From: Hormiphora californensis
Lineage: Eukaryota; Animalia; Ctenophora
Length of the DNA: 64,000 nucleotides
NCBI GenBank assembly: GCA_020137815.1
Contig: CM035360.1
Span: 3,286,001-3,350,000, forward strand
Direction of reading: 5' to 3'
Shown here: piece after piece, positions 14,825 through 48,828 of the stretch
Layout: each line of letters begins with the position of its first letter
Position numbering within the stretch: position 1 is the stretch's first letter
Notes under the pieces: generated by a model
The model's input: only the letters and a program-made list of their open reading frames with translations
Database searches by the model: none
What the model was told of the DNA's origin: nothing
Translations under genes and position numbers: made by a program

Positions 14825-17488
14825 TACGGTGGCTGATTCACGCCAACTTTTTTAATAGAAAAAATCGATAGAAAAAAAAGAAGAAAAAAAGATTCAAAGA
14901 AAAAAAAAACACAAAAAATATTTTGGCGTGAATCAGCCACCACTCATGGCTGATCTCCGCCAACGTTTCACAAAAAAACGTTGGCGTGAATCAGCCACCC
15001 CATGGCTGATCCACGCCAAGTAACGTGTTTCGACCTAGAACTCACTAGAGGCAAGCCAATTCCGGTTGTACATCCTAGGTATAGGCCTCCTGAACATGAA
15101 AAACCAAAATGTCAGTCTCAATTGTTTGGGCGAGGTGTGTAATTAGCCCCTAATTGATTGGTAATTGAGCATAAGGAGAAAAACGCTGTATCTACCCTTA
15201 GGAAAGGAGAAGAGACACAATTAAGGGCACCAAAGTGTTCAGTGTCCTCGCATTAGTGGGGGTAGGTGCCAGAATTAAGTCTCTATCTCATCTGGTTAAT
15301 TAGATAATTGGATAATTAGGTATGCCGTTTTTAGGCTATACGGCTATAGCCACTTAGAAATGGTTTAGAGACTTTTCATTGGTGCTATTTTGTAGGCAAT
15401 GGCCAAGTTAAGGGGGGTCGACGTCGGACTTTTAAGCTCTATCTTCAGCTGTTTAGCCGTTATTTGGCTTTAAAGGTGCTCAAAATCGGGCTTTTTACCG
15501 TTTTTTGCTAATTTTGAGCACCTTTAAGGGTACACCTGGCGTTTTTTATCATCGAGTGCCCAACCAAATGACTTCACCAGGGTTTAGGCCATACAAAATG
15601 GACCTCAAATATGCAATTTTAGCCCTAAAGTCGAATTCGTATTTTTGCTACAGCCTATTTTCAAAGTGGCGTTTTTTCAATTTTTGTTGGAATTTTTAAC
15701 CTCGGGACCACTTTTTTTGAGATAGAAACATTAAATTCTTGGAATTTGAAGAGAATATAAAGGTAAATAAGCCTAAAGAAGGATTTTTGAAATGGAGCTT
15801 ATTTCTGGCCATGAGAACGGTTTACTTTTTTGCGTCTTTGACACGCTGGCTGAGAATGTTCCCATGCTTCATTAGAGATGAAAATCTGGAAATAGTTGCT
15901 CATAACGATTATCTATGTGGCCCAAAAATTTTGGAACTTTTCCGCCAAAGATGTGGTGTACAGAGCTTGTTTTGTGAAACCCGTCTTTTTGAAAAAGAGG
16001 GAAATTCCCTGTATATCAAAAACGGATGATCGTAGAGACCTGCGACCAAGCTTAATCGATTCAGAAGGTCCGATTTTGGGGGGGTCTTCTGAGAGACATT
16101 TTGCTCCTACTCCAACCGTTTTTGCTGTAACTGCGAAAAAGGTATCAGCAAGTAAGGGGGAAATCAGCCCGAAGCAAGCTACTGGAATAGGGTTGTTCCC
16201 CCTTTTCATAGAATTGGTTTTTTGCAGTTACAGCAAAAACGGTTGGAGTAGGAGCAAAATGTCTCTCAGAAGACCCCCCCAAAATCGGACCTTCTGAATC
16301 GATTAAGCTTGGTCGCAGGTCTCTACGATCATCCGTTTTTGATATACATGGAATTTCCCTCTTTTTCAAAAAGACGGGTTTCACAAAACAAACTCTGTAC
16401 ACCACATCTTTGGCGGAAAAGATCCAAAATTTTTGGGCCACATAGATAATCGTTTTGAGCAACTATTTCTAGATTTTCATCTTTAATGAAGCATGGGAAC
16501 ATTCTCAGCCAGCGTGTCAAAGACGCAAAAAAGTAAACCGTTCTCATGGCCAGAAATAAGCTCCATTTCAAAAATCCTTCTTTGGGCTTATTCTCCTTTA
16601 TATTCTCTTCAAATTCCAAGAATTTAATGTTTCTATCTCAAAAAAAGTGGTCCCGAGGTTAAAAATTCCAACAAAAATTGAAAAAACGCCACTTTGAAAA
16701 TAGGCTGTAGCAAAAATACGAATTCGACTTTAGGGCTAAAATTGCATATTTGAGGTCCATTTTGTATGGCCTAAACCCTGGTGAAGTCATTTGGTTGGGC
16801 ACTCGATGATGAAAAACGCCAGGTGTACCCTTAAAGCCAAATAACGGCTAAACGGTTGAAGATAGAGCTTAAAAGTCCGACATCGACCCCCCATAACTTG
16901 GCCATTGCCTTCAAAATGGCACCAATGAAAAGTCTCTAAACCATTCCTAAGTGGCTTATAGCCATATGGCCAGCAAACGGCTATGTGCATACTTAATTAT
17001 CCAATTATCTAATTAACCAGATGAGATAGAGACTTAATTCTGGCACCTATCCCCACTAATGCGAGGACGCTGAACACTTTGGTGCCCTTAATTGTGTCTC
17101 TTCTTCTTTCCTAAGGGTAGATACAGCGTTTTTCTCCTTATGCTCAATTACCAATCAATTAGGGGCTAATTACACACCTCCCCCCAAACAATTGAGACTG
17201 ACATTTTGGTTTTTCATGTTCAGGAGGCCTATACCTAGGATGTACAACCGGAATTGGCTTGCCTCTAGTGAGTTCTAGGTCGAAACACGTTACTTGGCGT
17301 GGATCAGCCATGGGGTGGCTGATTCACGCCAACGTTTTTTTGTGAAACGTTGGCGGAGATCAGCCATGACTGGTGGCTGATTCACGCCAAAATATTTTTT
17401 GTGTTTTTTTCTTTGAATCTTTTTTTCTTCTTTTTTTTTCTTTCGATTTTTTCTATTTAAAAAAAGTTGGCGTGAATCAGCCACCGTA
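14825..17488. mobile_element. Foldback element with TACGG..CCGTA ends and a 6-bp TSD (IS3EU-like)
   Basis: TSD AAGCCT at 14819-14824 and 17489-17494; the empty site GGTCCAAGCCTATGGG is present in family A copy 1. Confidence 0.9.
15528..16830. mobile_element. 1.3-kb foldback with TTAA TSD and GG ends (Kolobok-like), copy 1
   Basis: TTAA-GGGTACACCTGGCG..CGCCAGGTGTACCC-TTAA; second copy at 46329-47632. Confidence 0.92.
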
Positions 17489-26629: not shown

Positions 26630-27113
26630 TACTATGACATCCATCCAGGATCACGTCGTCACACTGACGGTAGGGTGTCACGTATTTCCGTCAAATTTGC
26701 ATTCGATATAGTTAGATGTATTTACCTCAACGTGAAATGTGTCAACCTAAACATTTCCCGTGGTGCCCCATTTTAATCAGCTCATTTTGCGGATAAATTA
26801 TGGGCTTTACTTTGATCGGTGAGTACTGGATATGCAGTAAATGGTTGACCTCATTGAATAAATAATGACTAATCATTTGTCCTGGAAAGCTCGGACAGTA
26901 AATATTTGTTGAGCATCGTCGTCCTCGAGTACTCTACTTATTAAAGCTGCCAACACTAGGCGTCTTGATGTGAAAAAATAAGTAAAAAATTAAAAAAGAG
27001 CCCCCTAGATCGATCGTTAGACTAGACCTTCTTCTTGGTCCTGATGGTTCGGAAATCACTCGTACTGCTTCCTGGAATCAGCGCGGTCGCCGCGGAAAAT
27101 CTCGATGATATGC

Positions 27114-27157
27114 GAGTTTCAAACTTTTCAACACTACTTTAAACAAATTAATTTGAG
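27114..27157 (+). other. Spliced-leader exon copy at the 5' end of LINE A
   Basis: GAGTTTCAAACTTTTCAACACTACTTTAAACAAATTAATTTGAG. 41 nt are identical to 39307-39347(-). It matches my recollection of the Pleurobrachia SL, which is unverified here. Confidence 0.85.
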
Positions 27158-27178
27158 GTGCGGCATCCTCCACCTCAA

Positions 27179-30110
27179 ATGATTTCAGAAGATATGTCCT
27201 CTACAAATACAACTGAGGAACAACTGCGGATAATCTCGGAGCTGGTAGCTGAAGCGGATACCCCTGTCAAGGAGGTGCTCCAAGCCTATGATCCTGAGTT
27301 AACCTATGAGGAGATGCTACCGAAGATCGAAACACTCCCTGTAAGTGACCTAGAGGCTACTGCAGCTTTCCTCGGACAAGAGGTGACATGTGTGACTGGA
27401 GCGAAAAAATACCACTCAGAGAGAACACTGTCAGACTGGATTATCATGAGGACTGAGGCTCTCTTTCCCCAAACATGTAGAGAGTGTAGTGAATCCTACA
27501 CGGTGAAAAGGACTGATACACCCCCTGTTCGGTGTAACTATTGCGATGCTGGACTTCACAACTGTGCGGCTATCCGTGCTGAAGCTGGGAACAAAACCAA
27601 CACAAGGAGCCGAATATGGATGTGCAACGACTGTGTCTCAAAACATACTATTGAGAGGTTCAACAGTCACCTACCTGAGGGAGGTCCTCCAAACCCTACT
27701 CTTAATTCAACTCGACGCAGTTCAAATAGAGAGGTATTGGACAGAAGGACCAGTCAGCCTGCTGGCGGACGGAACGATCTTGCTGGCAGAAGGAATAATG
27801 GCCCACCTACCGGTGGAGATACAGGTGCGGCATCCTCCACCTCAAATGATTTCAGAAGATATGTCCTCTACAAATACAACTGAGGAACAACTGCGGATAA
27901 TCTCGGAGCTGGTAGCTGAAGCGGATACCCCTGTCAAGGAGGTGCTCCAAGCCTATGATCCTGAGTTAACCTATGAGGAGATGCTACCGAAGATCGAAAC
28001 ACTCCCTGTAAGTGACCTAGAGGCTACTGCAGCTTTCCTCGGACAAGAGGTGACATGTGTGACTGGAGCGAAAAAATACCACTCAGAGAGAACACTGTCA
28101 GACTGGATTATCATGAGGACTGAGGCTCTCTTTCCCCAAACATGTAGAGAGTGTAGTGAATCCTACACGGTGAAAAGGACTGATACACCCCCTGTTCGGT
28201 GTAACTATTGCGATGCTGGACTTCACAACTGTGCGGCTATCCGTGCTGAAGCTGGGAACAAAACCAACACAAGGAGCCGAATATGGATGTGCAACGACTG
28301 TGTCTCAAAACATACTATTGAGAGGTTCAACAGTCACCTACCTGAGGGAGGTCCTCCAAACCCTACTCTTAATTCAACTCGACGCAGTTCAAATAGAGAG
28401 GTATTGGACAGAAGGACCAGTCAGCCTGCTGGCGGACGGAACGATCTTGCTGGCAGAAGGAATAATGGCCCACCTACCGGTGGAGATACAGGGTCGGACG
28501 AGTCACCCCCTCCCTGCCGACGGACCTCCCTGCCGACGGGTCGGCAGGGAGGTCATTCGGCAGGGAGGGCGGGATATGGGGGTATAATGTCCTACGTGCC
28601 GACGAAATTGGGATGAGATCGCCGTCGGCACGTAGGACATTATACCCCTATTTTCTGCCCTCCCTGCCGACGGACCTCCCTACCGATCGGCAGGGAGGGC
28701 CGTCGGCAGGGAGGACATTTTACCCCTCCTTTTACCCTCTGTGCCGACGGTCGGCAGGGAGGACATTTTACCCCTCCTTTTACCCTCTGTACCGACGATC
28801 GGCAGGGAGGACATTTTACCCCTCCTTTTACCCTCTGTACCGACGATCGGCAAGTAGGGCCGTCGGCAGGGAGGACATTTACCCCTCCTTTTCAGCCTCA
28901 CTACCGACGATCGGCAGGGAGGACATTTACCCCTCCTTTTCACCCTCTGTGCCGACGAAACCATAACCCAAACCATCGCCCTAACCATCACCCTAACCAC
29001 CGCCCTAACCACCGCCCTAACCCTAACCCTAACCCTTACCCTAACCCTTACCCTAACGATACTCAGAGGAACAATACACAGTGAACTCTTCGTATTTGGC
29101 CTGCCGGCCAAATTCTCGAGCTCACAGAAGGAGTGAAACGCCCTCCCTACCGATCGTCGATACAGAGGGTAAAAGGAGGGGTGAAATATCCTCCCTGCCG
29201 ATCGTCGGTACAGAGGGTGAATAGGAGGGGTAAATGTCCTCCCTGCCGAATACTCTCTCGGAGTCAGTTTTCGGCAGGGAGGGCGGAATATAGGGGTCAA
29301 ATGTCCTACGTGCCGACGGCGATCTCATCCCAATCTCGTCGGCACGTAGGACATTATACCCCTATATCCCGCCCTCCCTGCCGAATGACCTCCCTGCCGA
29401 CCCGTCGGCAGGGAGGTCTGTCGGCAGGGAGGGCGGGTACCGGGTCGGACACGGAGGTTTGTAAATTCTACCTGCAGAGGAGATGCCGACACGGCAAAAA
29501 CGGAACCGCCAGGGTTGGAAACAGAACCTGCCCAAAAGCCCACCCCACCCTGTGTAAAAAGTTCTGTAACTATGGAACCATGAGGAGATTTGGATGTAAT
29601 ACTGAAAATTGCAACCTATCTCATCCTCCCCTCTGTAAGAACTCAGAGTTACGTCACCAGTGCTTTAAACAAAACTGCATGAAGCAACATCTAAAAGATA
29701 CTCAGCGGAGCCCGCCTTTTAGAGTTGATGAAGCACCCCGGAACACTGGTTTAAATGCTCGGAATGATCGTGACAGAAACCAATCCTCTCGGAGCAGGGG
29801 TGTAAACCAAGCACCTCCAAATGAACCAGGAATCTGGTCGTCTGAGCCAACTAGGGATAGGATACCAAGCAGATCCCAATGGCCTCAGGATCAGAACAGG
29901 GGCACGAGGCCTGACCCAGACCCGGCTTTTTTAGACGCCATCATCGACCGTCTCAGGGACTCTATAGCCGGGATAGTGAGGATGGAAATGAGGAATCGCC
30001 CGGAGCGGGAGCCCGACCAACAGCACTACAGCTCCCAGCCGACCCAACTCCCTCCAGGAATGGGCAACACATACAGTCCTCATCATCAGAGGGACAGACG
30101 GTCTTACTAA
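27179..30110 (+). pseudogene. LINE A ORF1 (PHD-like plus CCCH fingers), disrupted
   Basis: Aligns with the intact ORF1 of LINE B. Broken by a 667-bp tandem duplication and a MITE at 28500-29441. Confidence 0.88.
28500..29441. mobile_element. MITE with a 9-bp TSD (MuDR/Merlin-like)
   Basis: TSD GGGTCGGAC at 28491-28499 and 29442-29450; CCCTGCCGAC subrepeats; CCCTAA core. Confidence 0.85.
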
Positions 30111-30151
30111 ATACAGCAGGACCCTCAGTTCCCAGTAATCTCTCAAAACTG

Positions 30152-33121
30152 TTGCTTCTAAACGCCCGTAGCCTGAACCCGTCTGCGGGCAGTGAGGCAA
30201 GGTTCAAACTGGAGAACTTGAAGGACACCATTATGAACTCAAATATTCCTGTCATGGCTGCAGCCATCACGGAAACTTGGTGGCGGGCAGAATACTCGGA
30301 CGCACAGGTTAATATTCCTGGTTTTTCTGTCATCCGCAGCGATCGGGAAGGTAGGGTTGGGGGTGGCTGTGCCCTCTATCTCCACTCATCGGTGACCCCT
30401 TCCGATCAGATCACATTTTCAGATGAAAGCAACAGTGTTGTGGCGGTATACATTCCAAACATGAACTGTATTATCTCGTCAGTATACAGGGCTCCCACAG
30501 TGCCTGTGAACCTAGTTCTTGGGATTTTGGAGGAATTTATCTCACGTCACTCGTGTGAAGATTGTCCTCCAGATGTGTTTACGCTTGGTGACTTTAACAT
30601 GCCTCAGGTAAACTGGACATCAGTATCAGCGGATCAGGGAAATGCTCTGGTTGACTTTGCTGAGAGAAATTTCCTTACCCAGTTGGTTACAGAGCCTACT
30701 AGAGGACGGAACATTTTAGACATTGTACTTACAAACAGGGTGGATTATGTTTTTGACACCGATGTATCAGCCACCCAGATGTCGGACCACTCCATGGTGT
30801 CTTGTGTCCTCGGAATCGGGATCCACCAGTCCAAAACAGAACGTACAGCAGCTGGAAAAGGATTCAAGGCCCTTGACTACCACAACGCAGATTTTACTGC
30901 TGCAGGAGAGGAGCTGAGCAGTATTGATTGGGACACACTCCTATCCTCTTGTATTTCAGACGATGATGGCCACTCAATTGTGCAGTGTATCAGAGAGAAG
31001 ATACTAGAGGTATTTGAAAAACACAGCAAGAGAAAGAGGTTTGGTACCCAGAGAAAGAGAGATCCCTACCTGAGAAGACTGAAAAGGAGGCAGAAAAAGC
31101 TGAACTCTCGGATGAAACTGGCCAAGCAGAGATGCTCACACCAGTCCCTCATCGATAAACTCGAACGCAAGATAGACAAGACAGCCGATAAGATTAAGGC
31201 GTACTTGTTAGGCCTGCTGGAAGTAAAGGAGAGGAAAGCCATTGACACTATCAAATCAAATTCACGGTTTTTCTGGTCCTTTGTCAACAAGCACCGAAAA
31301 ATCAAATCGAGTGTGGCTCCACTCCTGAGACCTGATGGTACAGTGACTGATGACCCTCTGGAAAAGTCAAATATTCTCCAGTCGCAATATGTAGGAGTAT
31401 TCAGTGATCCGTCCATGTGCTCGGTTGAGGAGGCTATCAAGGACATTCCTTCTACGACCTGCACGCTAGATGAACTTGACTTCACCCCTGGTTGTATTGA
31501 AGCTGCACTGGCTGAATTGGACCCCTACGCTGGAGCACCTTCAGATGACATACCTGCGGTTATACTATCAAAGTGCCGGAAACAGCTAGCATACCCACTT
31601 TGGTTGCTCTGGAACCGTTCATTCACTGAGGGTGTTGTACCAGGTTGTCTCAAACGGCAACAGGTGACCCCAATTTTCAAAAAGGGTTCAAAGATGGAGG
31701 CTAAAAACTATCGCCCTGTTGCCCTCACATCCCATATGATAAAAACTTTTGAAAGGGTTGTGAGGAACAAAGTTGTGGATCACCTGGAGGGAAATGGAAT
31801 CTTCAATGATGGTCAGCACGGCTTTCGGAGAAATAGGAGTTGTCTGACCCAACTTTTGAACCACTATGACAACATCATGCGTGAACTGAATAACGGTCTG
31901 GAAGTGGATGTTGTTTATTTGGATATGGAGAAGGCGTTCGATAAAGTCGATATCAAGGCTTTATTGGGCAAGCTTGAGAAGTATGGTATACGTGGAAGAC
32001 TTCTCCGCTGGATAAGTGACTTTCTTTCAGCTAGAATACAGACAGTAGTGGTGGATGGAGTTCAGTCTCGGCCGGAACTCGTCATTAGTGGAGTCCCCCA
32101 GGGCACTGTTCTTGGCCCGCTTCTGTTCTTGGTTTATATGATAGACATTGAATCACTTCTTGCTGGAACAGTCCTAACTTTTGCAGATGACTCCAAGCTG
32201 TGGAAAGCGATCAGGTCACTCAACGACAGAGATAACCTGCAGCTGAGTCTTAATGAATTTGGACGTTGGGCTTCAGACAACAATATGTCACTCCATCAGG
32301 ATAAGTTTGAGGTGATAAATTATACACTTCGCTCCACCCAACTCCTGAGGGAGCTTCCTTTCTCCACTGACAATTATCTTTACAATGGTCCCGGAGGCGA
32401 GGCAATATCACCAAGTTTCACTGTGAGAGATCTAGGGGTCCTTGTATCTGCAGACTGCACTTGGTCAGAACACATAGGCAGCATTACTGCCAAGGCTAGA
32501 CGCATGAGTGGCTGGGCACTTAGTGTATTTCGGGATAGATCCGATGATACTATGCTAACGTTACTGAAGTCCATCATTAGGCCTCAGGTGGAGTACTGTT
32601 GTCCATTATGGAGCCCGGTGAAAAAGTCCGATATCGCCCTGGTTGAAGAGGCTCAGAGACACTTCACACGTAGGATTGAGAGCTGTTCCGGCATGGGGTA
32701 CTGGGATCGGCTCCAACATCTTGGTATCTTGTCCCTCCAGCGGCGTCGTGAGCGATACATGATTATCCATGTCTGGAAGGTTCTTCATGAGGTAGTTCCA
32801 AACGGCACGGGTCTCCTGTTTACTGAGCACACCCGTCTTGGTACCAGAGCATTGGTCCCCCGTTACAATTACCTCGCTCAAAAATCCATATCTGGCCCTT
32901 ATGACTCATCATTCGGTGTTAGAGGAGCACAGTTGTGGAATTCCCTACCCCGTGCAGTGAGAGAGGCAACATCACTGCTCGAGTTGAAACAGTCCCTTGG
33001 GTCCTACTTAACCACCATCCCCGACCAGCCACCTGTCCGCGGTTACCGGGTGGAGCACAGTAACTCCTTGATTGATTGGAGAAATGACCCCAGTGTGTTT
33101 AAAGAGATGGGCGACTCATAG
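30152..33121 (+). CDS. LINE A ORF2: APE endonuclease plus reverse transcriptase (frame open from 29915)
   Basis: LNARS, ITETW, GDFN, SDH; NYRPVALTS, QHGFR, GVPQG, FADD; no internal stops. Confidence 0.95.
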   Translation: MLLNARSLNPSAGSEARFKLENLKDTIMNSNIPVMAAAITETWWRAEYSDAQVNIPGFSVIRSDREGRVGGGCALYLHSSVTPSDQITFSDESNSVVAVYIPNMNCIISSVYRAPTVPVNLVLGILEEFISRHSCEDCPPDVFTLGDFNMPQVNWTSVSADQGNALVDFAERNFLTQLVTEPTRGRNILDIVLTNRVDYVFDTDVSATQMSDHSMVSCVLGIGIHQSKTERTAAGKGFKALDYHNADFTAAGEELSSIDWDTLLSSCISDDDGHSIVQCIREKILEVFEKHSKRKRFGTQRKRDPYLRRLKRRQKKLNSRMKLAKQRCSHQSLIDKLERKIDKTADKIKAYLLGLLEVKERKAIDTIKSNSRFFWSFVNKHRKIKSSVAPLLRPDGTVTDDPLEKSNILQSQYVGVFSDPSMCSVEEAIKDIPSTTCTLDELDFTPGCIEAALAELDPYAGAPSDDIPAVILSKCRKQLAYPLWLLWNRSFTEGVVPGCLKRQQVTPIFKKGSKMEAKNYRPVALTSHMIKTFERVVRNKVVDHLEGNGIFNDGQHGFRRNRSCLTQLLNHYDNIMRELNNGLEVDVVYLDMEKAFDKVDIKALLGKLEKYGIRGRLLRWISDFLSARIQTVVVDGVQSRPELVISGVPQGTVLGPLLFLVYMIDIESLLAGTVLTFADDSKLWKAIRSLNDRDNLQLSLNEFGRWASDNNMSLHQDKFEVINYTLRSTQLLRELPFSTDNYLYNGPGGEAISPSFTVRDLGVLVSADCTWSEHIGSITAKARRMSGWALSVFRDRSDDTMLTLLKSIIRPQVEYCCPLWSPVKKSDIALVEEAQRHFTRRIESCSGMGYWDRLQHLGILSLQRRRERYMIIHVWKVLHEVVPNGTGLLFTEHTRLGTRALVPRYNYLAQKSISGPYDSSFGVRGAQLWNSLPRAVREATSLLELKQSLGSYLTTIPDQPPVRGYRVEHSNSLIDWRNDPSVFKEMGDS

Positions 33122-33275
33122 AAATGTGTTTTGCTTTTCATTGTCATTTGGCTGATACATATAACCTGCTGACTTTCCATGTCATCTGAGTGTTGGCTCC
33201 TTTTGAGCTAAAGCTTTGTGTACAATACTAAATTTATTTACGAATGTTTACGAATGTTTACGAATGATGATTTGC

Positions 33276-33690
33276 GAGAGGTACACTATGATTCTTGTGT
33301 GGAAAGTGTACAACAATGAGATACCCAACAGTACTGATATGTGTTTCGTCGACAGGCACCGCTCGGCGCTCTGACCCTAGAGCTGTCGTCCCTCGTCCCC
33401 TCAATACTCGTACGAGGCTCAACGATCTAACCTATATGAACAATCATTTGCGGTACTGGGGGCAAGGTTGTGGAACACTTTGCCTCGATCTGTAAAGGAG
33501 GCCCCAACTCTTTATCAGTTCAAATCTCAGCTAGGTAGTTTCCTCTCTACCATTCCGGACTGTCAGGCCAATGCTCTGACCATGCAGTTCTCGCGCGCTG
33601 TCAGGCCAATGCTCTGACAGATTCCGGATACACCCCCCATCAGCGGTTATCCTGCTCAAGCAAACAGCAACTCAATACTAGAGTGGTGTC
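33276..33690 (+). pseudogene. Old CR1-group 3' fragment
   Basis: ERYTMILVWKV..GARLWN.LP..IPD.P remnants. Confidence 0.65.
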
Positions 33691-34170
33691 CATGATGCGT
33701 GTTAGTGTGTTATGTGTCGCTGTGCTGTGAGTGTACTGAGTATTGACTCTTTTTAGGAGGTTTATCTTTTAACTTTTTAAATACTAGCGCACCCATTGGG
33801 TGCGCCTCAAGTAAGGGTTTTTTGCCCCTTTGAACGTGAAAAAAACGGTTGCCATGGCAACTGAATTGGTAACTATGGGGACTGGCATGTTGTTGGGCAC
33901 GTCGCGCCCCCCATGTTCGCAGGCAAGGCATGTTGAAATTCATTCGAAAATATCAAAAAACTTCCACTGGAACTTCAGAAAGTGTGAATAACAGCTTTAC
34001 AGCTTTCGTCATATGAAGTGTTTTATGAAGGAGCAGCCTGTCGCTTAGATACCGCCTAACGAACGACCATCACTTCGACGTTCATCTCCAAATTATAATA
34101 GAGATCCTAAGTGTTACGCAAATTTATGAATTTGAATTTGAATTTGAATTTGTTGAGGTGTAAAGTTTAT

Positions 34171-34318
34171 GAGGCCCCTCGGAAATGTTCAAGTCATGCA
34201 CAATCAAGTCACGCCCACCAATCACAGCGCAGAACGCGCGAAGCACTCCGCGTGTTCTGAGCTGTGATTGGTGGGCGTGACTTGATTGTGCATGACTTGA
34301 ACATTTCCGAGGGGCCTC
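34171..34318. mobile_element. 148-bp palindromic MITE with GAG..CTC ends and AT flanks (a split second copy spans 34506-42462)
   Basis: Near-perfect hairpin. The second copy's left end is at 34506 and the remainder at 42342-42462. Confidence 0.8.
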
Positions 34319-34964
34319 ATTATATTGTGTTTATTATATATTGTGTTTATTATATATTGTGTTTATTACTACGCGCACTTGCAACAGATTTCAAACATCG
34401 CGCGGCGCAATATTTGCGCGTTTACCGCGCGCGCACAAAAAACTAAAATCCAAGGCCAAGCTCGAATTTCGGAAATAAAATTTTTTGATCGAAATTTTTT
34501 ATGATGAGGCCCCTCGGAAATGTTCAAGTCATATTGTTTTGGGAAACTTGTATGGAAATCCCTCGCCGCTTTACGTCGGATCCTGTGTGATAATGAGTGA
34601 TGAAGGCAGCACTCAAGGCTGCCCCAGTGCGATGGCGATGTACAGCCTCGGAATTCTCCCCCTTATCAACCTGGCTGATATGGGTGACATCATACAGTGT
34701 TGGTACGCTGATGATGCCAACGCTGCAGGAAATCTGACAGGTCTCTTGGACTGGTTCTCGCTAGTGCAGACACAGGGACCGGCATTTGGTTACTTCGTAA
34801 ATCCTGAAAAGTGTAACCTGATTGTTCATTCATAACATTCATAAATAAATTAAGCATTGTACACAAAGTTTCAGCTCAAAAAGAGCTAACACTCAGACAC
34901 CAAAAGGAATCGGGTTTTAATGGGCAGCCAAACAACATAGAAAAGCAAAACACCCCTGAATGAT

Positions 34965-37900
34965 TTACTCTCTGAAAACACTCGGATCGTTTCTCCAATC
35001 CAACAGGGAGTTACTGTGCTGAACACTATACCCACGAACCGGTGGCTGGTCAGGGATGGTGGACAGATATTTACCGAGCGACTGCTTTAGCTCGAGTAGG
35101 GAAGCTGAAGATCTCACTACCCGAGGCACTGCATTCCATAACTGAGCTCCTTTTACGCCGAATGATGAGTCATAGGGGCCAGAGATGGATTTTTGGGCCA
35201 AGTAGTTATACCGAGGGATTACCGCTCTGGTGCCAAGGCGTGGGTGCTCTGTAAACAAGAGACTCGTACTGTTTGGTACTACCTTATGCAAGACCTTCCA
35301 GACGTGGATAATTGTATATCGTTCTCGGCGCCGTTGAAGGGACAGGATTTTGAGGTGATGGAGTCTGTCCCAGTAATTCATGCCCGAACAACTCGCGATC
35401 CTGCGGGTGAATTGTCTCTGTGCCTCCTCAACCAGTGCAATATCTGACTTTTTGACAGGGTTCCATAGGGGACAACAGTATTCAACCTGGGGTCTGACGA
35501 TGGATTTGAGTAGGGTTAGCATGGTGTCATCCGATCTATCCCGAAACACACTAAGTGCCCAGCCACTCATCCGACGAGCCTTAGTCGTGATGCTGCCGAT
35601 ATGCTCCGACCATGCACAGTTAGTTGAAACAAGGACTCCTAGGTCTTTGACAGATTCGCTAGGGGATATCGTTTCGCCTCCAGGCCCACTGTAGGAGTAG
35701 TTTTCATTGGAGAATGGCAGCTCTCTTAACAGTTGGGTGGAGCGAAGAGTATAGTTCATAACTTCAAATTTGTCCTGGTGTAGGGACATGTTGTTATCTG
35801 TCGCCCAACGTGCAAACACAGCTAGACTTTTCTGGAGATCCTCTCTATCATCCAATGACTTGATTGCCTTCCACAGCTTGGAATCGTCTGCGAAGGTGAG
35901 GACTGTGCCAGAAAGAAGTGTCTCTATGTCTATCATATAGACTAAAAACAACAAGGGACCAATAACTGTACCCTGTGGGACACCACTGATGACCAATTCC
36001 TCCCGAGACTGAGCACCATCTACCATCACTGTTTGTACTCTTTCTGAAAGGAAGTTGTTGATCCAACGGTGTAGCTGTCCCCGAATACCGTATTTTTCCA
36101 ATTTTGCCATCAAGACCTTGACATCGACTTTGTCAAAAGCCTTCTCCATGTCTAAATACACAACATCCACTTCGTGTCCGTTATTCAGTTCTCTCATGAC
36201 ATTATCGTAGTGGTTTAAGAGTTGAGTCAAGCAGCTTCTGTTCCTCCGGAAACCATGCTGGCCATCGTTGAAGAGCCCATTTCCCTCCAGATGATCGACA
36301 ACTTTGTTTCTTACAACTCTCTCAAATGTTTTAATCATGTGGGAGGTGAGTGCGACAGGCCGATAATTTTTTGCCTCCATTTTGGATCCTTTCTTAAACA
36401 CGGGTGTTATATATTGGCGTTTAAGGCATGTTGGTACGACACCCTCATGGAAAGAACAATCCCAAAGTAACCATAAGGGGTATGCCAACTGTTTCCGGCA
36501 CTTGGACAGTATAACCGCTGGTATGTCCCCTGGTGGTGCTCCAGCGTAAGGATCTAACTCAGCCAATGCATCCTCAATACAGCCGGGAGTAAAATCAAGA
36601 TTGTCCAGTGCGATGGTCGTAGAAGGAATATCCTTAGTAGCCTCCTCGGCCGAACACTTAGCAGGATCGCTAAATACCCCCACATACTGTGACTGAAGAA
36701 TGTTTGATTTCTCCAGGGGATCATCGGTAACTGTGCCATCAGGTCTTAGGAGTGGGGCCACACTAGACTTGATTTTCCGATGCTTGTTTACAAATGACCA
36801 GAAAAACCGTGGATTACATTTGATAGTGCCAATAGCCTTTCTCTCTCTTCCTTCCAGAAGCCCAAGGAGGTGAACCTTTATCCTATCACCAGTCTTCTCA
36901 ATTTTACGGTTAAGCTTATCAATCAGGGACTGGTAGGAACATCTCTCCCTAGCAAGTTTTAACCGGGAGTTCAACTTTTTCTGCCTCCTTTTCAATCGTT
37001 TCAGATAGGGATCGCTCTTCTTTAAATTGCTAAAAACCTTCTGTTTAGAATGCTTTTCGAACACGCCTAGAACAATCTCTGTAATACATTGGACATAGGC
37101 GTGGCCGCCATCTTCCATGTCATATGGAGCTAAGTGTTCGTCCCAGTTTATAGCGTCTAGCTCCTCACGTGCCCCGGTGAAGTCAGCATTGTGGTAATCA
37201 AGTGCCTTGAACCCTCTAGCAGCTCGTTTGCAGTCTGACTTAGCCTGTTTCAGCCCAACTCCCAGAATGCAAGAAACGAGAGCGTGGTCAGACATTTGGG
37301 TCGCCGTTACATCCATGTCGAGGACATAGTCCACTCTATTCGTAAGAACAATGTCCAAGATACTCTTACCTCTCGTGGGCTCCGTCACTAGTTGGGTAAG
37401 AAAATTTTTCTCAGCAAATTCAACCAGGGAGTTACTCTGGTCGGTTGGAAGATTTGACCAGTTTACATGGGGCATATTGAAGTCACCTAGCACAAAAACC
37501 TCAGGCGGACAATCACCGGAGGAATGGCGTTGAATAAACTCCTCCAGGATTCCGATGACTTGGAGTGGGTTTGATGTGGGGGCCCTGTAAACTGTTGCAA
37601 TAACGAAGTTTGAGTTAGGAATGTAGACTGCAACGACACTATTACAGTTATCTGAGAAAGCAACCTGATCAGAGGGGGACAAGGATGAATGAAGATATAG
37701 GGCACAGCCACCCCCCACCCTGCCGTCCCGATCACTGCGTATAATAGAATAACCGGGGATACCCACCTGGGCATCTGAAAATTCAGCCCGCCACCAAGTT
37801 TCAGTAATGGCTACGGCCATGGCAGGAATATCAGAGTTGCAAATAGTGTCTTTAAGATTCTCCAGCTTGTACCTTGTTTCGCTACTTGCACTCGGGTTTA

Positions 37901-38204
37901 GACTGCGAGCATTTAGCAGCATAAGTTTGGAAAGGTTGCTGGGAACTGAGGGTTTCTCGGAAGCTAATACGACCGTCTCCCCCTCTGCTGATGAGGGCTG
38001 AAGGTGTAACCTGTTCCTGCTGGCAGTTGAGCCGGTTGGGTGTGTTGGGAGTATAACTGGTCTGGAAGTAGAACTGGTTCTGGCTCTGGACGATTCCTCA
38101 TCTCCGTTCTCACTATCCCGGCTATTGAGTCCCTCAGCCGGTCGAGGACTGCCTCTAAAAAAGCAGCATCTGGTCCAGGTCTCTGATTCTGAGACTGGGA
38201 CCAT
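34965..38204 (-). CDS. LINE B ORF2: APE endonuclease plus RT
   Basis: Same motifs as LINE A ORF2; overlaps ORF1 in the -1 frame. Confidence 0.95.
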   Translation of the reverse strand: MVPVSESETWTRCCFFRGSPRPAEGLNSRDSENGDEESSRARTSSTSRPVILPTHPTGSTASRNRLHLQPSSAEGETVVLASEKPSVPSNLSKLMLLNARSLNPSASSETRYKLENLKDTICNSDIPAMAVAITETWWRAEFSDAQVGIPGYSIIRSDRDGRVGGGCALYLHSSLSPSDQVAFSDNCNSVVAVYIPNSNFVIATVYRAPTSNPLQVIGILEEFIQRHSSGDCPPEVFVLGDFNMPHVNWSNLPTDQSNSLVEFAEKNFLTQLVTEPTRGKSILDIVLTNRVDYVLDMDVTATQMSDHALVSCILGVGLKQAKSDCKRAARGFKALDYHNADFTGAREELDAINWDEHLAPYDMEDGGHAYVQCITEIVLGVFEKHSKQKVFSNLKKSDPYLKRLKRRQKKLNSRLKLARERCSYQSLIDKLNRKIEKTGDRIKVHLLGLLEGRERKAIGTIKCNPRFFWSFVNKHRKIKSSVAPLLRPDGTVTDDPLEKSNILQSQYVGVFSDPAKCSAEEATKDIPSTTIALDNLDFTPGCIEDALAELDPYAGAPPGDIPAVILSKCRKQLAYPLWLLWDCSFHEGVVPTCLKRQYITPVFKKGSKMEAKNYRPVALTSHMIKTFERVVRNKVVDHLEGNGLFNDGQHGFRRNRSCLTQLLNHYDNVMRELNNGHEVDVVYLDMEKAFDKVDVKVLMAKLEKYGIRGQLHRWINNFLSERVQTVMVDGAQSREELVISGVPQGTVIGPLLFLVYMIDIETLLSGTVLTFADDSKLWKAIKSLDDREDLQKSLAVFARWATDNNMSLHQDKFEVMNYTLRSTQLLRELPFSNENYSYSGPGGETISPSESVKDLGVLVSTNCAWSEHIGSITTKARRMSGWALSVFRDRSDDTMLTLLKSIVRPQVEYCCPLWNPVKKSDIALVEEAQRQFTRRIASCSGMNYWDRLHHLKILSLQRRRERYTIIHVWKVLHKVVPNSTSLLFTEHPRLGTRAVIPRYNYLAQKSISGPYDSSFGVKGAQLWNAVPRVVRSSASLLELKQSLGKYLSTIPDQPPVRGYSVQHSNSLLDWRNDPSVFRE

Positions 38205-39262
38205 TGGACTCCACTCGACACCCTCGCCCTACTGGGTTCACTTGACCAAGGTCCTGCATCAGGTGCTTGGTTTTGACCTGTGGTTCGTGATTGGGCTGAA
38301 GGGATTCTTTCACGGCGGTTCCTCTCATTTCCAGTCCCACGTGATGTTCCTTCTCCAGGCCTAGTCCTCAGGGTGTCCTTCAAGTGATGTTTGGTACAGC
38401 TCAGTTTATAACACTGGTGCCGTAACTCGGAATTCTTACACAGTGGAGGATGGAAAAAGTTACATTCAGTGTTCTGGCATCCAACGCTCCTCATAGATCC
38501 ATAGTTGCAAAACTTTTTGCACAGTGTAGGGTGAGATTTGGGACAAGATCTGCCACTAACTAGCTTCGTCCCATCTCTCCCGTGTCTGCACCTCCTTTGC
38601 AAATAAAACCTACACACTTCGTTTCCTGGAACACCCCTCTCTCCCTGTTCCGCTGGGTCCGGTAGGTCCTCTCGTTCCTCTGCAGTTCTACTGATGTGCC
38701 TTCCCAGGATCTGCTCTCGGTTTGAACTACGTCTGGTCGAGTTATGACTAGGATCTGGACCACCGTCAGGTAGATGGCTAGTAAACCTTTCCAGAGTTTG
38801 TTTACCGAGGCAAGGGGAGCACACCCAAATTCGGCTTTTGATAGCAGTGCTGCTGGCCTCTTCTCGTATCTTTGCACAGTTGTGCAGACCGCCACCACAG
38901 ATGAAGCACCGAGCAGGGGGATTTTCATTTCTCTTCACGGAATACTTTTCGGTACACTCGCTGCATGTTTGGGGACCAAATCCCTCTATCCGCATGATGA
39001 TCCAGTCAGCCAGGGTTGTTACTGAATGGTATTTCTGCACTCCAGACGCCACACATCTAACCTCTTGGCCAAGGAAGATAGCAGTTGCCTCCAGATTACT
39101 AGCTGGGATAGCCTCCAGTTTGCTGAGGTTTTCCTCATAGTCCAGAGAAGGGTCATAAACTTCAATAACCTCCTTAACCGGTGTTCTGGCATCCTCTTTC
39201 AGCTCAGAGAGTACAGCAGCAAAGACGGCTGGATCTGTGTCATTAGCATGGTCCATTGCCAT
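37964..39262 (-). CDS. LINE B ORF1: PHD-like plus tandem CCCH zinc fingers
   Basis: CSEC..CFIC...HNC..WVCSPC; CRFYLQRRCRH..CPKSHP..CKKFC..CNFFHP..C..C..CTKHH. Confidence 0.9.
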   Translation of the reverse strand: MAMDHANDTDPAVFAAVLSELKEDARTPVKEVIEVYDPSLDYEENLSKLEAIPASNLEATAIFLGQEVRCVASGVQKYHSVTTLADWIIMRIEGFGPQTCSECTEKYSVKRNENPPARCFICGGGLHNCAKIREEASSTAIKSRIWVCSPCLGKQTLERFTSHLPDGGPDPSHNSTRRSSNREQILGRHISRTAEEREDLPDPAEQGERGVPGNEVCRFYLQRRCRHGRDGTKLVSGRSCPKSHPTLCKKFCNYGSMRSVGCQNTECNFFHPPLCKNSELRHQCYKLSCTKHHLKDTLRTRPGEGTSRGTGNERNRRERIPSAQSRTTGQNQAPDAGPWSSEPSRARVSSGVQWSQSQNQRPGPDAAFLEAVLDRLRDSIAGIVRTEMRNRPEPEPVLLPDQLYSQHTQPAQLPAGTGYTFSPHQQRGRRSY

Positions 39263-39306
39263 ACTAGACACTACAGTGGAATATTTGAAAACGCACGGGC
39301 GCGCGC

Positions 39307-39347
39307 CTCAAATTAATTTGTTTAAAGTAGTGTTGAAAAGTTTGAAA
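39307..39347 (-). other. Spliced-leader exon copy at the 5' end of LINE B
   Basis: TTTCAAACTTTTCAACACTACTTTAAACAAATTAATTTGAG, identical to 27117-27157. Confidence 0.85.
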
Positions 39348-40619
39348 GTTGTTAAAGAAGAACATTTGGAAGAGGCACGGGAGCTATTCAAAGATGTAGG
39401 TGTCAAGATTACATCGGCCGGAGCTCGCCACCTCGGTGCTGCAATTGGAATGGAGTCATACAGAGCGGAATATGTATCGGAAAAGGTAGCAGAGTGGGCT
39501 GCAGCTCTTATGAATCTCGTAGACGTTGCAAAGACACACCCACACCTCGCATACAGCAACTTCGTGAGAAGTTTTAAGTGTAAGTGGGGATATCTACAAC
39601 GAACCATCCCTGACATCGGCCCTCTATTCCAGCCTATCGAAGACATCATCCGGCACAAGTTCATCCCTCTAGTCGTTGGAAAACATGTGTCTGATCTTGA
39701 ACGGAGAGTCCTGGCTCTGCCGATAAGGATGGGTGGTTTGGCAATTGAAGACCCGACGGAAGCTGCAAAACACCAATACAGCAGCTCGAGGTTCATCAAC
39801 ACCCCACTCGTTGAATTGATCCTTTCAGACGGGTCTGAAGGCGGCACCATAGCAAATGTAGAGTCCTGTGCAGCTAAAAACAAAAAGGAGTGTGAAGAAG
39901 CCGCTCAAGAACGGGCTGAGCTTGAGCTGAAATCGATAGTGTCTGAGGCAGATGATCGCCTGAAACGGGCACTGGAGCTTAACTCTGAACAGGGATCTTC
40001 AAGCTGGTTATCAGCCAGACCACTCAAACACCTTGATCATGAGTTTAACCAGAGGGAATTTGTTGATGCCATTCGTCTAAGATACGGCTTTCATTTCTCG
40101 GATCTTCCTTCCAAATGTGGATGTGGGGCTGACAATAATGCAGACCATGCCCTAATCTGCAAGGTTGGTGGGTTCGATATTTGGAGACACGATCATCTGA
40201 GGGACACCATGGCCGAGTTGTTCAGGTATGCAGGATTGAAACCGGTGAATACAGAACAGCTGCTTCTTTTTTTTATCGGGAAAAACATTTAAACCGAAAA
40301 TTATAAAAGCAAATAGTTTCGTCAAATATCTGTCGTCCTCCGGCTCAGGGCTCAACCAACGTGGCTTGAACGCCACCATGACAGGTCACACCCAACACTA
40401 CCGTGTGAAGGACATACATTTCCTGTCAGTGCCAACACCAGGGACGATGCCCGAATGGACATAGTATGCCGAGGTCTATGGCGGGATATGGAGGCATCCT
40501 ACCTCGATGTGCGGGTGTTTCACCCTAATGCTCCCTCCTACCAGAAAACATCAATCGCTCAGCTACACAGAACTCACCAGAACCAGAAGAAAATGGCCTA
40601 TTTGAGGAGGGTTCTAAAC

Positions 40620-45268: not shown

Positions 45269-45883
45269 TTAAGCCATAGGGGCCTCACAGACGATCCTTT
45301 GCGGATCCTTACAATTCATATGATGGTACTTCCACCTCCATTCATTGTGGTTCCTATAACTCACCATGCAGGGCATAGAGTGGTTGTTGACATTCCGTCC
45401 AGGGTGCACCTTGACATTCAACTTCTGCTGAATTTTCCTCATATCCTCTCCACTAGCGGTGTAAAAATCTGCGACGTTGGTGCTTTGTCCTTTACTGTTA
45501 CACACAGTTCCGAGATAGTACCAGGTGTTATGTCTCATCACGTTCTGTTCCACCCATTTGTACTCCTCTCTATCGTTAGGTTGCCAGTTGTGCGCCTGGT
45601 TCCTGTTACAAAACTCCTCACCATCCTTCCAGTTCTTGTGCCCAGCCTCAAAATAACACTTTTTATTCCACTCTTTCCATCCTCCTTTGCACTGGGGCTG
45701 TCCTTGGTCAATTCTGAACTGGGGGGACCAGTTTCCAAGGTGACGAAAACGGCAGGTTGTGGGAACAGGCCGTACATAGTATCCCTTAAAGTCACCGCCT
45801 CCGCCGATATCCTTGCCGTAATCCGTGCAGATGACATTAGCAGCGGAGGTAACTCCGAAAAGGAGAACAAAAAAGAGCAACAT
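45269..45883 (-). CDS. Secreted C-type-lectin-like domain protein, 204 aa, intronless
   Basis: Signal peptide; C..GW....KCY....W..GE.FC..A..E...V..WYYLG..C..W..C....VCE. Confidence 0.85.
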   Translation of the reverse strand: MLLFFVLLFGVTSAANVICTDYGKDIGGGGDFKGYYVRPVPTTCRFRHLGNWSPQFRIDQGQPQCKGGWKEWNKKCYFEAGHKNWKDGEEFCNRNQAHNWQPNDREEYKWVEQNVMRHNTWYYLGTVCNSKGQSTNVADFYTASGEDMRKIQQKLNVKVHPGRNVNNHSMPCMVSYRNHNEWRWKYHHMNCKDPQRIVCEAPMA

Positions 45884-46057
45884 GGTAAGTCACTCGTGAG
45901 GCTAAACTATTACAACTTGAACTAAATTATAATTGTATGTTATAATTATGTGGCATACCGGCATCCTTTTGTTGGTCGGCATCCTTTTAACCCCAACCAC
46001 GATACAGTGTTGTTCAAAAGTCTTGTGCTGACGTGGCATCTATAGAGAGAAAGAAAA

Positions 46058-46152
<95 letters not shown>

Positions 46153-46328
46153 GCAAACGTATTGCACTCGGCATGCTTTAAACCCAGACCACGACTCAGT
46201 GTTATTCAAAAGTCTTGAGCTGACGTGGCATCTGTATTTATGCTGATAGAGAGGAAAATAATGCGGACAACAAAAAAAAAGAATTCGACGCCAATTTTCG
46301 GACAACAACTCACTTTCGACGTGTTTAA

Positions 46329-47632
46329 GGGTACACCTGGCGTTTTTCATCATCGAGTGCCCAACCAAATGACTTCACCAGGGTTTAGGTCATACAAAAT
46401 GGACCTCAAATATGCAATTTTAGCCCTAAAGTCGAATTCATATTTTTGCTACAGCCTATTTTCAAAGTGGCGTTTTTTCAATTTTTGTCGGAATTTTTAA
46501 CCTCAGGACCACTTTTTTTGAGATAGAAACATTAAATTCTTGGAATTTTAAGAGAATATAAAGGTGAATAAGCCCAACGAAGGATTTTTGAAATGGAGCT
46601 TATTTCTGGCCATGAGAACGCTTCACTTTTTTGCTTCTTTGACACGCTGGCTGAGAATGTTCCCATGCTTCATTGGAGATGAAAATCTGGAAATAGTTGC
46701 TCAAAACGATTATCTATGTGGCCTAAAAATTTCGGAACTTTCCCGCCAAAGATGCGGTGTACAGAGCTTGTTTTGTGAAACCCGTCTTTTTGAAAAAAGA
46801 GGGAAATTCCCTGTATCTCAAAAACGGATGATCGTAGAGACCTGCGACCGAGCTTAATCGATTCAGAAGGTCCGATTTTGGGGGAGTCTTCTGAGAGACA
46901 TTTTGCTCCTACTCCAACCGTTTTTGCTGTAATTGCAAAAAACCAATTCTATGAAAAGGGGAAACAACTCTATTCCAGTAGCCTGCTTCGGGCTGATTTC
47001 CCCCTTACTTGCTGATACCTTTTTCGCAATTACAGCAAAAACGGTTGGAGTAGGAGCAAAATGTCTCTCAGAAGACCCCCCCAAAATCGGACCTTCTGAA
47101 TCGATTAAGCTTGGTCGCAGGTCTCTACGATCATCCGTTTTTGAGATACAGGGAATTTCCCTCTTTTTCAAAAAGACGGGTTTCACAAAACAAGCTCTGT
47201 ACACCGCATCTTTGGCGGGAAAGTTCCAAAATTTTTAGGCCACATAGATAATTGTTTTGAGCAACTATTTCCAGATTTTCATCTCCAATGAAGCTTGGGA
47301 ACATTCTCAGCCAGCGTGTCAAAGAAGCAAAAAAGTGAAGCGTTCTCATGGCCAGAAATAAGCTCCATTTCAAAAATCCTTCGTTGGGCTTATTCACCTT
47401 TATATTCTCTTCAAATTCCAAGAATTTAATGTTTCTATCTCAAAAAAAGTGGTCCTGAGGTTAAAAATTCCGACAAAAATTGAAAAAACGCCACTTTGAA
47501 AATAGGCTGTAGCAAAAATATGAATTCGACTTTAGGGCTAAAATTGCATATTTGAGGTCCATTTTGTATGACCTAAACCCTGGTGAAGTCATTTGGTTGG
47601 GCACTCGATGATGAAAAACGCCAGGTGTACCC
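46329..47632. mobile_element. Kolobok-like foldback, copy 2
   Basis: TTAA TSDs; same family as 15528-16830. Confidence 0.92.
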
Positions 47633-47642
47633 TTAAAGTTAA

Positions 47643-48192: not shown

Positions 48193-48828
48193 TCAATACA
48201 AAAAGCTATCTCCATAGTCCTCTACAGACAGTTCAACAAGAATGAGCCTGTAAAACGTAGTAAAATAACTGATTCTATATTCCTCATCATCATTTCGATC
48301 TGGAACAACGTTTTGTCGGCACAATGGGCACGTTCGATATCGGAATTTATCCAGCCACAATTTGAGGCATGTCCTACAGAAGTGATGGCCACACGGAAGG
48401 GATGAGACAAGGACGAACCGTTTCATGCTCTCCATGCATATGGGACAGTCTGCATCATCTTCCTTCACCCAGAGGATACCGAGTCCGTTAAAAAGTCGGA
48501 GAATGCTTTGTGTGATCTTCACTGTACAGTACACCCCACTCAGGAGGATTACTAAGGAAACGAAGAAGAACTCTGGGTATGTTAGAGTGAAGTGTTGGAC
48601 AATGACCACCTTGTTCTGGGAAAATGTACAGGAGTAATTAGCACTGTGGAGAAGCCTCGTCCGAAAGTCATAGTACTGGGAGAAAATTGAAGCTGAGGAA
48701 GAGGAGGGGAGGTTCCTTTCTGTAGTTGAGATGAGTGATTTGGACATGAACAATACTGCAAGGATGTTTATGTAGAGGAGAACGAGAGAGCAGGTACAGA
48801 TAATTGGGCCGATGCCACCACTAAACAT
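48193..48828 (-). CDS. Membrane-associated C3HC4 RING finger protein
   Basis: Two hydrophobic segments, then CPIC..LPCGHHFCRTC..W..CPLCR; splice acceptor near 48891. Confidence 0.8.
   Translation of the reverse strand: MFSGGIGPIICTCSLVLLYINILAVLFMSKSLISTTERNLPSSSSASIFSQYYDFRTRLLHSANYSCTFSQNKVVIVQHFTLTYPEFFFVSLVILLSGVYCTVKITQSILRLFNGLGILWVKEDDADCPICMESMKRFVLVSSLPCGHHFCRTCLKLWLDKFRYRTCPLCRQNVVPDRNDDEEYRISYFTTFYRLILVELSVEDYGDSFLY

Follow-up and report, generated by a model that had tools for sequence, protein, structure and literature searches.

We analysed a 64,000-nucleotide stretch of the genome of the ctenophore Hormiphora californensis (contig CM035360.1, positions 3,286,001 to 3,350,000 of the forward strand; hereafter the window, in whose own numbering all positions are given) and found two full-length copies of long interspersed nuclear elements (LINEs), copy A on the plus strand and copy B on the minus strand, whose 5' ends consist of the organism's own spliced-leader (SL) exon. 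The make-up of both insertions indicates that they were reverse-transcribed from LINE mRNA which the host had trans-spliced, and the comparison between them indicates that the leader is renewed by trans-splicing at each round of retrotransposition. At least seven deeply diverged LINE lineages are headed by this leader: A, B and five from marine metagenome contigs. As to which copies gave rise to new ones, we put the probability that leader-bearing copies, and not rare leader-less masters, were the parents at roughly 0.45.

Leader sequence and structure of the two LINE copies

The plus strand reads GAGTTTCAAACTTTTCAACACTACTTTAAACAAATTAATTTGAG at 27114-27157, matching in 44 of 44 nucleotides the trans-spliced leader published for H. 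californensis (PMC8527503, available text). According to the same text, this 44-nt leader stands on 56% of Iso-Seq reads and was counted 718 times in the genome, where it was treated as spliced-leader loci or shared first exons (PMC8527503). Contigs of sequencing run X20 join the leader to many unrelated bodies; they cover only the leader, without LINE bodies. Run X17 gave low-depth contigs on ORF2 (the second open reading frame) of A and B, and some contigs with an internal leader. Both X17 and X20 were only guessed to be RNA, and no evidence on expression was drawn from either. From the published 44/44 match and the presence of the same sequence on many unrelated mRNA bodies, the leader is the organism's real SL.

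The initial annotation had described a single leader without stacking, ending in AG exactly at the junction and followed by almost no 5' untranslated region (UTR). The first two points were borne out. A 24-nt SL probe with up to three mismatches matched the whole window only twice, once per element (27134-27157, plus; 39307-39330, minus), and matched none of 100 shuffled sequences; the leader of copy A ends in ...TTAATTTGAG and abuts the element body without a gap, with the ORF1 ATG 21 nt further on at 27179. The third point stood for copies A (21 nt) and B (44 nt) but not for four related SL-headed LINEs from the metagenome, whose UTRs are 145-188 nt long.

Copy A begins with a target-site duplication at 27104-27116 (GATGATATGCGAG), of which the same 13 nt recur with one mismatch at 33266-33278 (GATGATTTGCGAG); together they read GATGAT[A/T]TGCGAG. 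The terminal GAG of the 5' duplication coincides with the first three leader nucleotides, and these bases may be assigned to either. The DNA copy of the leader (27114-27157) is followed by the 21-nt 5' UTR (27158-27178) and by the N-terminal part of ORF1 (27179-27823, 215 codons), which shows 58% amino acid identity to the N-terminus of B ORF1 with a ratio of nonsynonymous to synonymous divergence (dN/dS) of 0.14. After an extra segment of 1618 nt, the C-terminal part of ORF1 with its Cys/His-rich motifs lies at 29442-30110 (66% amino acid identity to B, dN/dS 0.11). ORF2, with an apurinic/apyrimidinic-type (APE) endonuclease and a reverse transcriptase (RT), occupies 29915-33121; it is open from 29915 and its first ATG is at 30233. 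The 3' UTR and a short tandem-repeat tail, (TTTACGAATG)n, extend over 33122-33266. The duplication encloses leader, body and tail, and the whole insertion lies within one older LINE frame: the two flanks, read together, continue from ...KISMICE on one side to RYTMILVWKV on the other, and the flank at 33276-33686 aligns to residues 961-1070 of B ORF2. A joint from 27115 to 34370 was considered as the empty site of copy A and rejected, being a paralogous arrangement of the host repeat.

The extra segment within ORF1 of copy A (27824-29441) is composed of a tandem repeat followed by GC-rich palindromic repeats. Its opening is a 100% identical repeat of element positions 1-667, starting from the exact SL/body junction, and 27156-27825 equals 27823-28492 in 670 of 670 bases. 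At the junctions ACAG is followed by GTGCGG in the one case and GAG by GTGCGG in the other. The palindrome arms are located at 28508-28826 and 29126-29433, and a 48-nt tandem unit is also present. One contig each of runs X1 and X5 joins 27823 directly to 29442, which means that other copies do not contain the segment. The AGGT[G/T]CGG microhomology suggests a template switch or an unequal exchange; alternatively, the segment may have originated from splicing onto the AG of the resident leader.

Copy B lies between two TTGTT duplications (plus-strand reading), that on the 3' side of the element at 34822-34826 and that on the 5' side at 39349-39353. In contigs of X1 and X5, 34821 is followed immediately by 39349, and 4-5 letters at the joint could belong to either side; by this empty-site joint the 5-bp duplication encloses the leader, body and tail of B. 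Read along the minus strand, the element comprises the DNA copy of the leader (39307-39347, 41 nt; the first 2-3 nt are missing, and an additional C stands before it at 39348), a 44-nt 5' UTR (39263-39306) with an internal acceptor-like ...CCACTGTAG ending at 39271, an uninterrupted ORF1 of 432 amino acids (37964-39262) overlapping an uninterrupted ORF2 of 1079 amino acids with APE and RT (34965-38204), and the 3' UTR with tail (34827-34964, ...TTTATGAATGTTATGAATG). A Pfam search found Exo_endo_phos, Exo_endo_phos_2 and RVT_1 in ORF2 of both A and B and no family in the ORF1s; with an N-terminal endonuclease followed by RT in ORF2, both copies are APE-type LINEs. The element interrupted by copy B is the RT region of another retroelement on the opposite strand (34560-34826 and 39354-40292, plus). 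It has a YADD-type RT motif, its frame crosses the insertion site (...NLIV before it, KEEHLEE... after it), and Pfam gave no family on the tested pieces.

The position of the leader inside the target-site duplications of both A and B marks it as part of the retrotransposed cDNA, and thus as neither an SL RNA gene nor the target of insertion. In both copies the leader ends exactly at the exon/donor boundary of the SL RNA gene, without any SL intron after it. Past the leader, the true SL RNA gene goes on with GTAAGC...; copy A continues with GTGCGG and copy B with GCGCGC, each running into ORF1. An SL RNA gene at either place was therefore rejected: A has the GT but runs into ORF1, and B has GC.

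An assembly artefact was also rejected, as the SL/body junction of B occurs in contigs of three independent DNA-type runs. X1 and X5 are DNA-type runs of two samples under one organism label, and X8 carries another organism label; their contigs, with those of X17, were compared over 38950-39420, with 24 of 100 loose contig ends listed. The junction was found in contigs of 46 nt and 856 nt in X1 and of 50 nt in X8, each with 0 other letters; in the 856-nt contig the body runs 10 nt into the leader, unbranched. Besides the identical 50-nt contig, X8 contains a 299-nt contig which has 27 differences and still reaches the leader. A subfamily with the same first 18 UTR bases plus the leader is present in X1, X5 and X8. 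No SL-less upstream context was seen at the start of the B body (39306) in X1, X5 and X8 among the 24 of 100 loose ends. The junction position is kept across deep divergence and under two organism labels.

Two other forms of family B were detected. In one X5 contig, 39270 is joined to 39307, so that the leader is fused past 36 skipped nucleotides ending in CCACTGTAG; the joint after this internal TAG indicates a sister copy, and that UTR-containing precursors were trans-spliced at more than one site. Another copy (one contig of X1, two of X5) has a leader 5'-truncated at CTTTTCAAC and without 14 internal nucleotides. The X1 and X5 contigs of this deleted leader share 22 letters upstream of the join (39307-39317) and then differ; on the element strand these letters read TTGGACCCCTAGG, then the leader remnant CTTTTCAAC, and the flank accounts for 13 nt. 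They could be two alleles, or a defective leader inherited with a piece of the parental flank.

Leader renewal and leader-headed LINEs beyond the window

The bodies of A and B share 73.5% identity over 3838 nt and 65.7% over the 645 nt of the ORF1 N-terminal region, and their UTRs are unalignable, whereas the two leaders agree at 41 of 41 bases. This agrees with the initial annotation, which held that the leader stays identical while the element bodies diverge. ORF2 of the two copies differs by a synonymous divergence (dS) of 1.85 with dN/dS 0.07, and the two parts of ORF1 by a dS of about 2.2 with dN/dS 0.14 and 0.11. At such saturating divergence, dN/dS values of 0.07-0.14 indicate that both lineages were long under selection for working proteins. 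With a proportion of synonymous differences of about 0.69, simple arithmetic gives a chance of about 1e-21 for no change in 41 neutral sites. From the 41/41 identity at a dS of about 2, the leader is renewed each round and not inherited, and the claim that it is regenerated in every generation was upheld on this evidence. The completeness of the leader's 5' end differs by 0-3 nt among most copies and by 9 nt in one metagenome locus (L086), among the matches listed; variation of 0-3 nt is the pattern expected of independent cDNA ends.

Marine metagenome contigs were scanned with the last 22 nt of the leader, and at least 121 loci were found. In 111 of the 121 listed loci the leader lies within 30 nt of the contig end and is followed by unrelated coding sequence, an mRNA-like arrangement. 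One locus (L067) was set aside as a palindromic assembly artefact. The true SL RNA gene was identified in two tandem copies about 778 nt apart on one 1945-nt contig (L088 and L089): the leader is followed by GTAAGCTGAG..., by a CCUUUUGG Sm-like site and by three predicted stem-loops, with a folding z of -4.1. The gene start reads ...CAGCAGTTTC. The SL RNA probably starts with AGTTTC, and the extra 5' G of the cDNA-derived leaders would then be templated by the cap.

Five of the metagenome loci are LINEs. In four of them (L028, L039, L043 and L065, family C) the leader precedes the 145-188-nt UTR, a CCHC-type ORF1 and the start of an APE-type ORF2. Their ORF1s are mutually only 45-61% identical, yet in all four a perfect leader meets the UTR at homologous positions, to within 1 nt. 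The fifth (L082, family D) has an ORF1 N-terminus like those of A and B and a perfect leader. Before this leader there are 351 nt of flank, the sole such contig in an assembly that otherwise resembles RNA and where 62 of 63 leader matches lie at contig ends, and it is probably read-through RNA running from flank through SL into LINE. In DNA-type metagenome contigs, four of the eight leader occurrences head LINEs and two are SL RNA genes, among the matches listed. In the window both full-length LINEs are leader-headed, and five other LINE pieces are 5'-truncated.

Two further loci, L072 (53-95) and L086 (145-186), encode the leader internally, before ORFs without a recognisable family; for L072 there was one sub-cutoff Pfam match. 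Either may be a retrogene tagged with the leader or a mobile element of another kind. Immediately after the leader, L072 and L082 show TTTTAG or TTTCAG, which resembles a canonical acceptor. A relic leader downstream of a leader was found in none of the 121 listed loci and nowhere in the window; an extra scan match upstream of the leader in L072 was rejected as a relic, being an AT-rich chance look-alike. The leader probe gave no match to viral contigs, and comparison of the 121 listed loci with the genes of the window gave no gene match, only short repeats.

Parents of new copies

Copies A and B arose from LINE mRNA that was trans-spliced by the host, reverse-transcribed and inserted with the leader as the 5' end of the cDNA. 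In the cycle that we propose, new rounds would start from transcripts reading into such leader-bearing copies, with transcription presumably coming from outside the element, and these transcripts would undergo trans-splicing anew, either at the AG of the resident leader or shortly downstream of it. Leader-bearing parents are favoured by the breadth of leader-headed lineages, the conservation of the junction, the absence of masters among the copies seen and the cis-preference of LINE proteins. The probable read-through RNA of L082, the AG-free leader tract and the lack of relic leaders downstream of the leader in the 121 listed loci count in the same direction. With strong purifying selection and this cis-preference, it is most likely the translated, leader-capped RNA that is copied.

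We only tentatively suggest that the resident GAG is itself the acceptor used. Between base 2 of the leader and its terminal AG there is neither an AG nor any other G, and 23 of the 38 bases there are pyrimidines; past a branch point within the leader or shortly upstream of it, the terminal AG would therefore be the first one reached. A resident leader that acts as acceptor and restarts the cycle without a promoter is plausible. The widest form of the proposal seems to us unlikely as a whole: that ctenophore LINEs gave up their own promoter, that the carried leader serves as an outron-like AG-free tract where read-through transcripts are re-spliced and the mRNA is regenerated, with the 5' junction fixed over millions of years, and that trans-splicing acts as a promoter substitute.

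Several observations weigh against leader-bearing parents or against the resident acceptor. The resident site TTTGAG has the AG but a G at -3, and G is the base least used there at the 3' splice sites of studied eukaryotes, a preference that may not be the ctenophore's. No ctenophore acceptor consensus was found in the available text of the SLIDR paper and of the Hormiphora paper (PMC8527503). The sole alternative acceptor seen, that of the X5 sister copy, is TAG. Of the nine extra genomic-type copies, seven came to light via the leader itself, and copies found by a leader search cannot reveal leader-less masters; in addition, contigs drop rare variants. Copy B is antisense to the retroelement it interrupts, and the surroundings of both A and B are transposon debris, not an evident host gene. 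Copy A has a broken ORF1, a short UTR may be compatible with an internal promoter inside ORF1, and the flank in L082 could be DNA carry-over.

Repeated splicing would also leave marks on the copies. Re-splicing at AGs of the flank is expected to give leader-spacer-leader copies, and none was found in the window or among the nine genomic-type metagenome loci. Re-splicing at downstream AGs is expected to erode the UTR; the short UTRs of A, B and the sister copy spliced 36 nt further fit this pattern, whereas the 145-188-nt UTRs of family C do not.

It is quite possible instead, as the initial annotation itself allowed, that each family has a few leader-less masters with their own promoter and an outron whose acceptor lies at element position 1, that the bulk of the master mRNA is trans-spliced, and that the leader-capped insertions made from it are dead ends. 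This would be ordinary LINE biology with an internal 5' promoter, and it accords with the -3 G, which makes the resident leader a poor acceptor. The two family-B acceptors 36 nt apart fit an upstream outron as well as they fit recycling, and read depths, which are not copy numbers, suggest few copies per family, so that a rare master could escape detection. However, no leader-less context was seen at the B junction among the loose ends compared, and both full-length copies of the window and all five metagenome LINE loci (5/5, the latter found by the leader probe) are leader-capped. An unseen master would have to be assumed for each of at least seven lineages. Cis-preference, too, would make dead-end progeny dominate, yet the lineages have been under long-term purifying selection.

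We consider it improbable that the integrated leader, alone or with the element start, acts as a promoter or initiator and is inherited or only occasionally replaced. The start of the SL RNA gene, quoted above, seems to resemble an initiator. Such a role has also been proposed for retroposed leaders in dinoflagellates, where it would explain single instead of stacked leaders (PMC6050394, available text). An inherited leader would, however, decay, and the leaders are perfect across lineages at a dS of about 2; retrocopies lose the gene's upstream promoter, and the 5' ends of the leaders vary by 0-3 nt without progressive loss.

A switch of the RT from LINE RNA to SL RNA, without trans-splicing and in the style of U6/L1 chimeras, is very improbable and was rejected. 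Such chimeras are reportedly known for mammalian L1, but copying that began at the 3' end of the SL RNA would take in the intron (GTAAGC...), and only the exon was found, ending at the donor boundary; its joint to the element lies at the same position in separate copies and under two organism labels. Least probable is a site-specific LINE of the NeSL-1, SLACS, CZAR or CRE type with the leader as target DNA: the LINE does adjoin leader sequence, but the duplications enclose the leader, the flanks come from an older LINE (A) and the RT region of another retroelement (B) with no SL gene, the 3' ends are not followed by SL intron, the endonuclease is of APE type, and the empty-site joint refutes this explanation for both copies.

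The only evident host-type ORFs of the window encode a C-type lectin domain and a RING finger (45272-45889 and 48196-48828, both minus); each lies 6 kb or more away from copy B. The other long ORFs are transposon pieces, and neither the lectin nor the RING ORF adjoins A or B. A long near-perfect hairpin (TGAGGCCCCTCGGAAATGTTCAAGTCATGC...) was found at 34150-34330 between the tails of the two LINEs, beside repeats of very high depth at 33745-34228. The window also contains several large inverted-repeat, foldback-like elements (15522-16836, 46324-47638 and others), with arms of up to 851 nt and 96-98% identity.

Significance and comparison with known systems

On the present data, some of the 718 leader loci counted in H. 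californensis (PMC8527503) are 5' ends of LINE retrocopies and not SL RNA genes or shared first exons, and such LINE-derived loci affect gene models and SL gene counts. For the elements themselves, the upkeep of a working 5' end is a central problem of the LINE life cycle, since copying leaves an upstream promoter behind. If leader-capped copies do reproduce, SL trans-splicing by the host would solve this problem; the process would be an animal counterpart to the mRNA recycling of dinoflagellates and would help to account for the separate mRNAs of 'nested' genes that have no promoter in the compact ctenophore genome.

The elements NeSL-1 of nematodes and SLACS, CZAR and CRE of trypanosomatids encode a restriction-like endonuclease and insert into SL RNA genes. 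The ctenophore copies are like them in that a LINE stands beside an SL, but they differ in their APE-type endonuclease, in a leader enclosed by the duplication and in unrelated targets. LINEs of the CR1/L2 group encode APE and RT, have two ORFs and end in short tandem repeats rather than poly(A). Copies A and B likewise have APE and RT, two overlapping ORFs and tails of 9-10-nt repeats; of these, only the tandem-repeat tail points to membership in the group. A leader-capped 5' end was not among the described features of the CR1/L2 group in the literature that we found. Nor did our literature search find leader-capped copies of LINEs described from any animal genome, although Derelle et al. 2010 may bear on this point.

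In Hydra, about 30% of the Iso-Seq reads of transposable elements carry a leader, according to the available text of PMC12220107. Hydra is, like Hormiphora, a non-bilaterian animal with SL trans-splicing. The Hydra observation is at the RNA level, and the available text mentions neither genomic copies with a leader encoded at the 5' end nor a cycle (PMC12220107); the ctenophore leaders are encoded in the genomic copies themselves.

The closest comparison is with the retrogenes of dinoflagellates that contain relicts of the dinoflagellate spliced leader (DinoSL), the 'recycled' processed cDNAs of Slamovits and Keeling 2008 as described in the available text of PMC6050394, in which DNA-encoded leader relics are re-spliced. 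In both systems a DNA-encoded SL marks copies of trans-spliced mRNA, and for the dinoflagellate copies re-expression with a new leader was proposed (PMC6050394). The retroposed leader was also proposed there to aid survival of the copy (PMC6050394). No stacked, 5'-truncated relics of the dinoflagellate type were found in the window or among the 121 listed loci. The dinoflagellate copies are host genes, in which the location of the acceptor AG inside DinoSL leads to truncated, stacked relics (PMC6050394, as far as the available text goes), whereas the ctenophore copies are autonomous LINEs of an animal with a single complete leader. Unlike the internal AG of DinoSL, it is the terminal AG of the leader that any re-use in the ctenophore LINEs would need.

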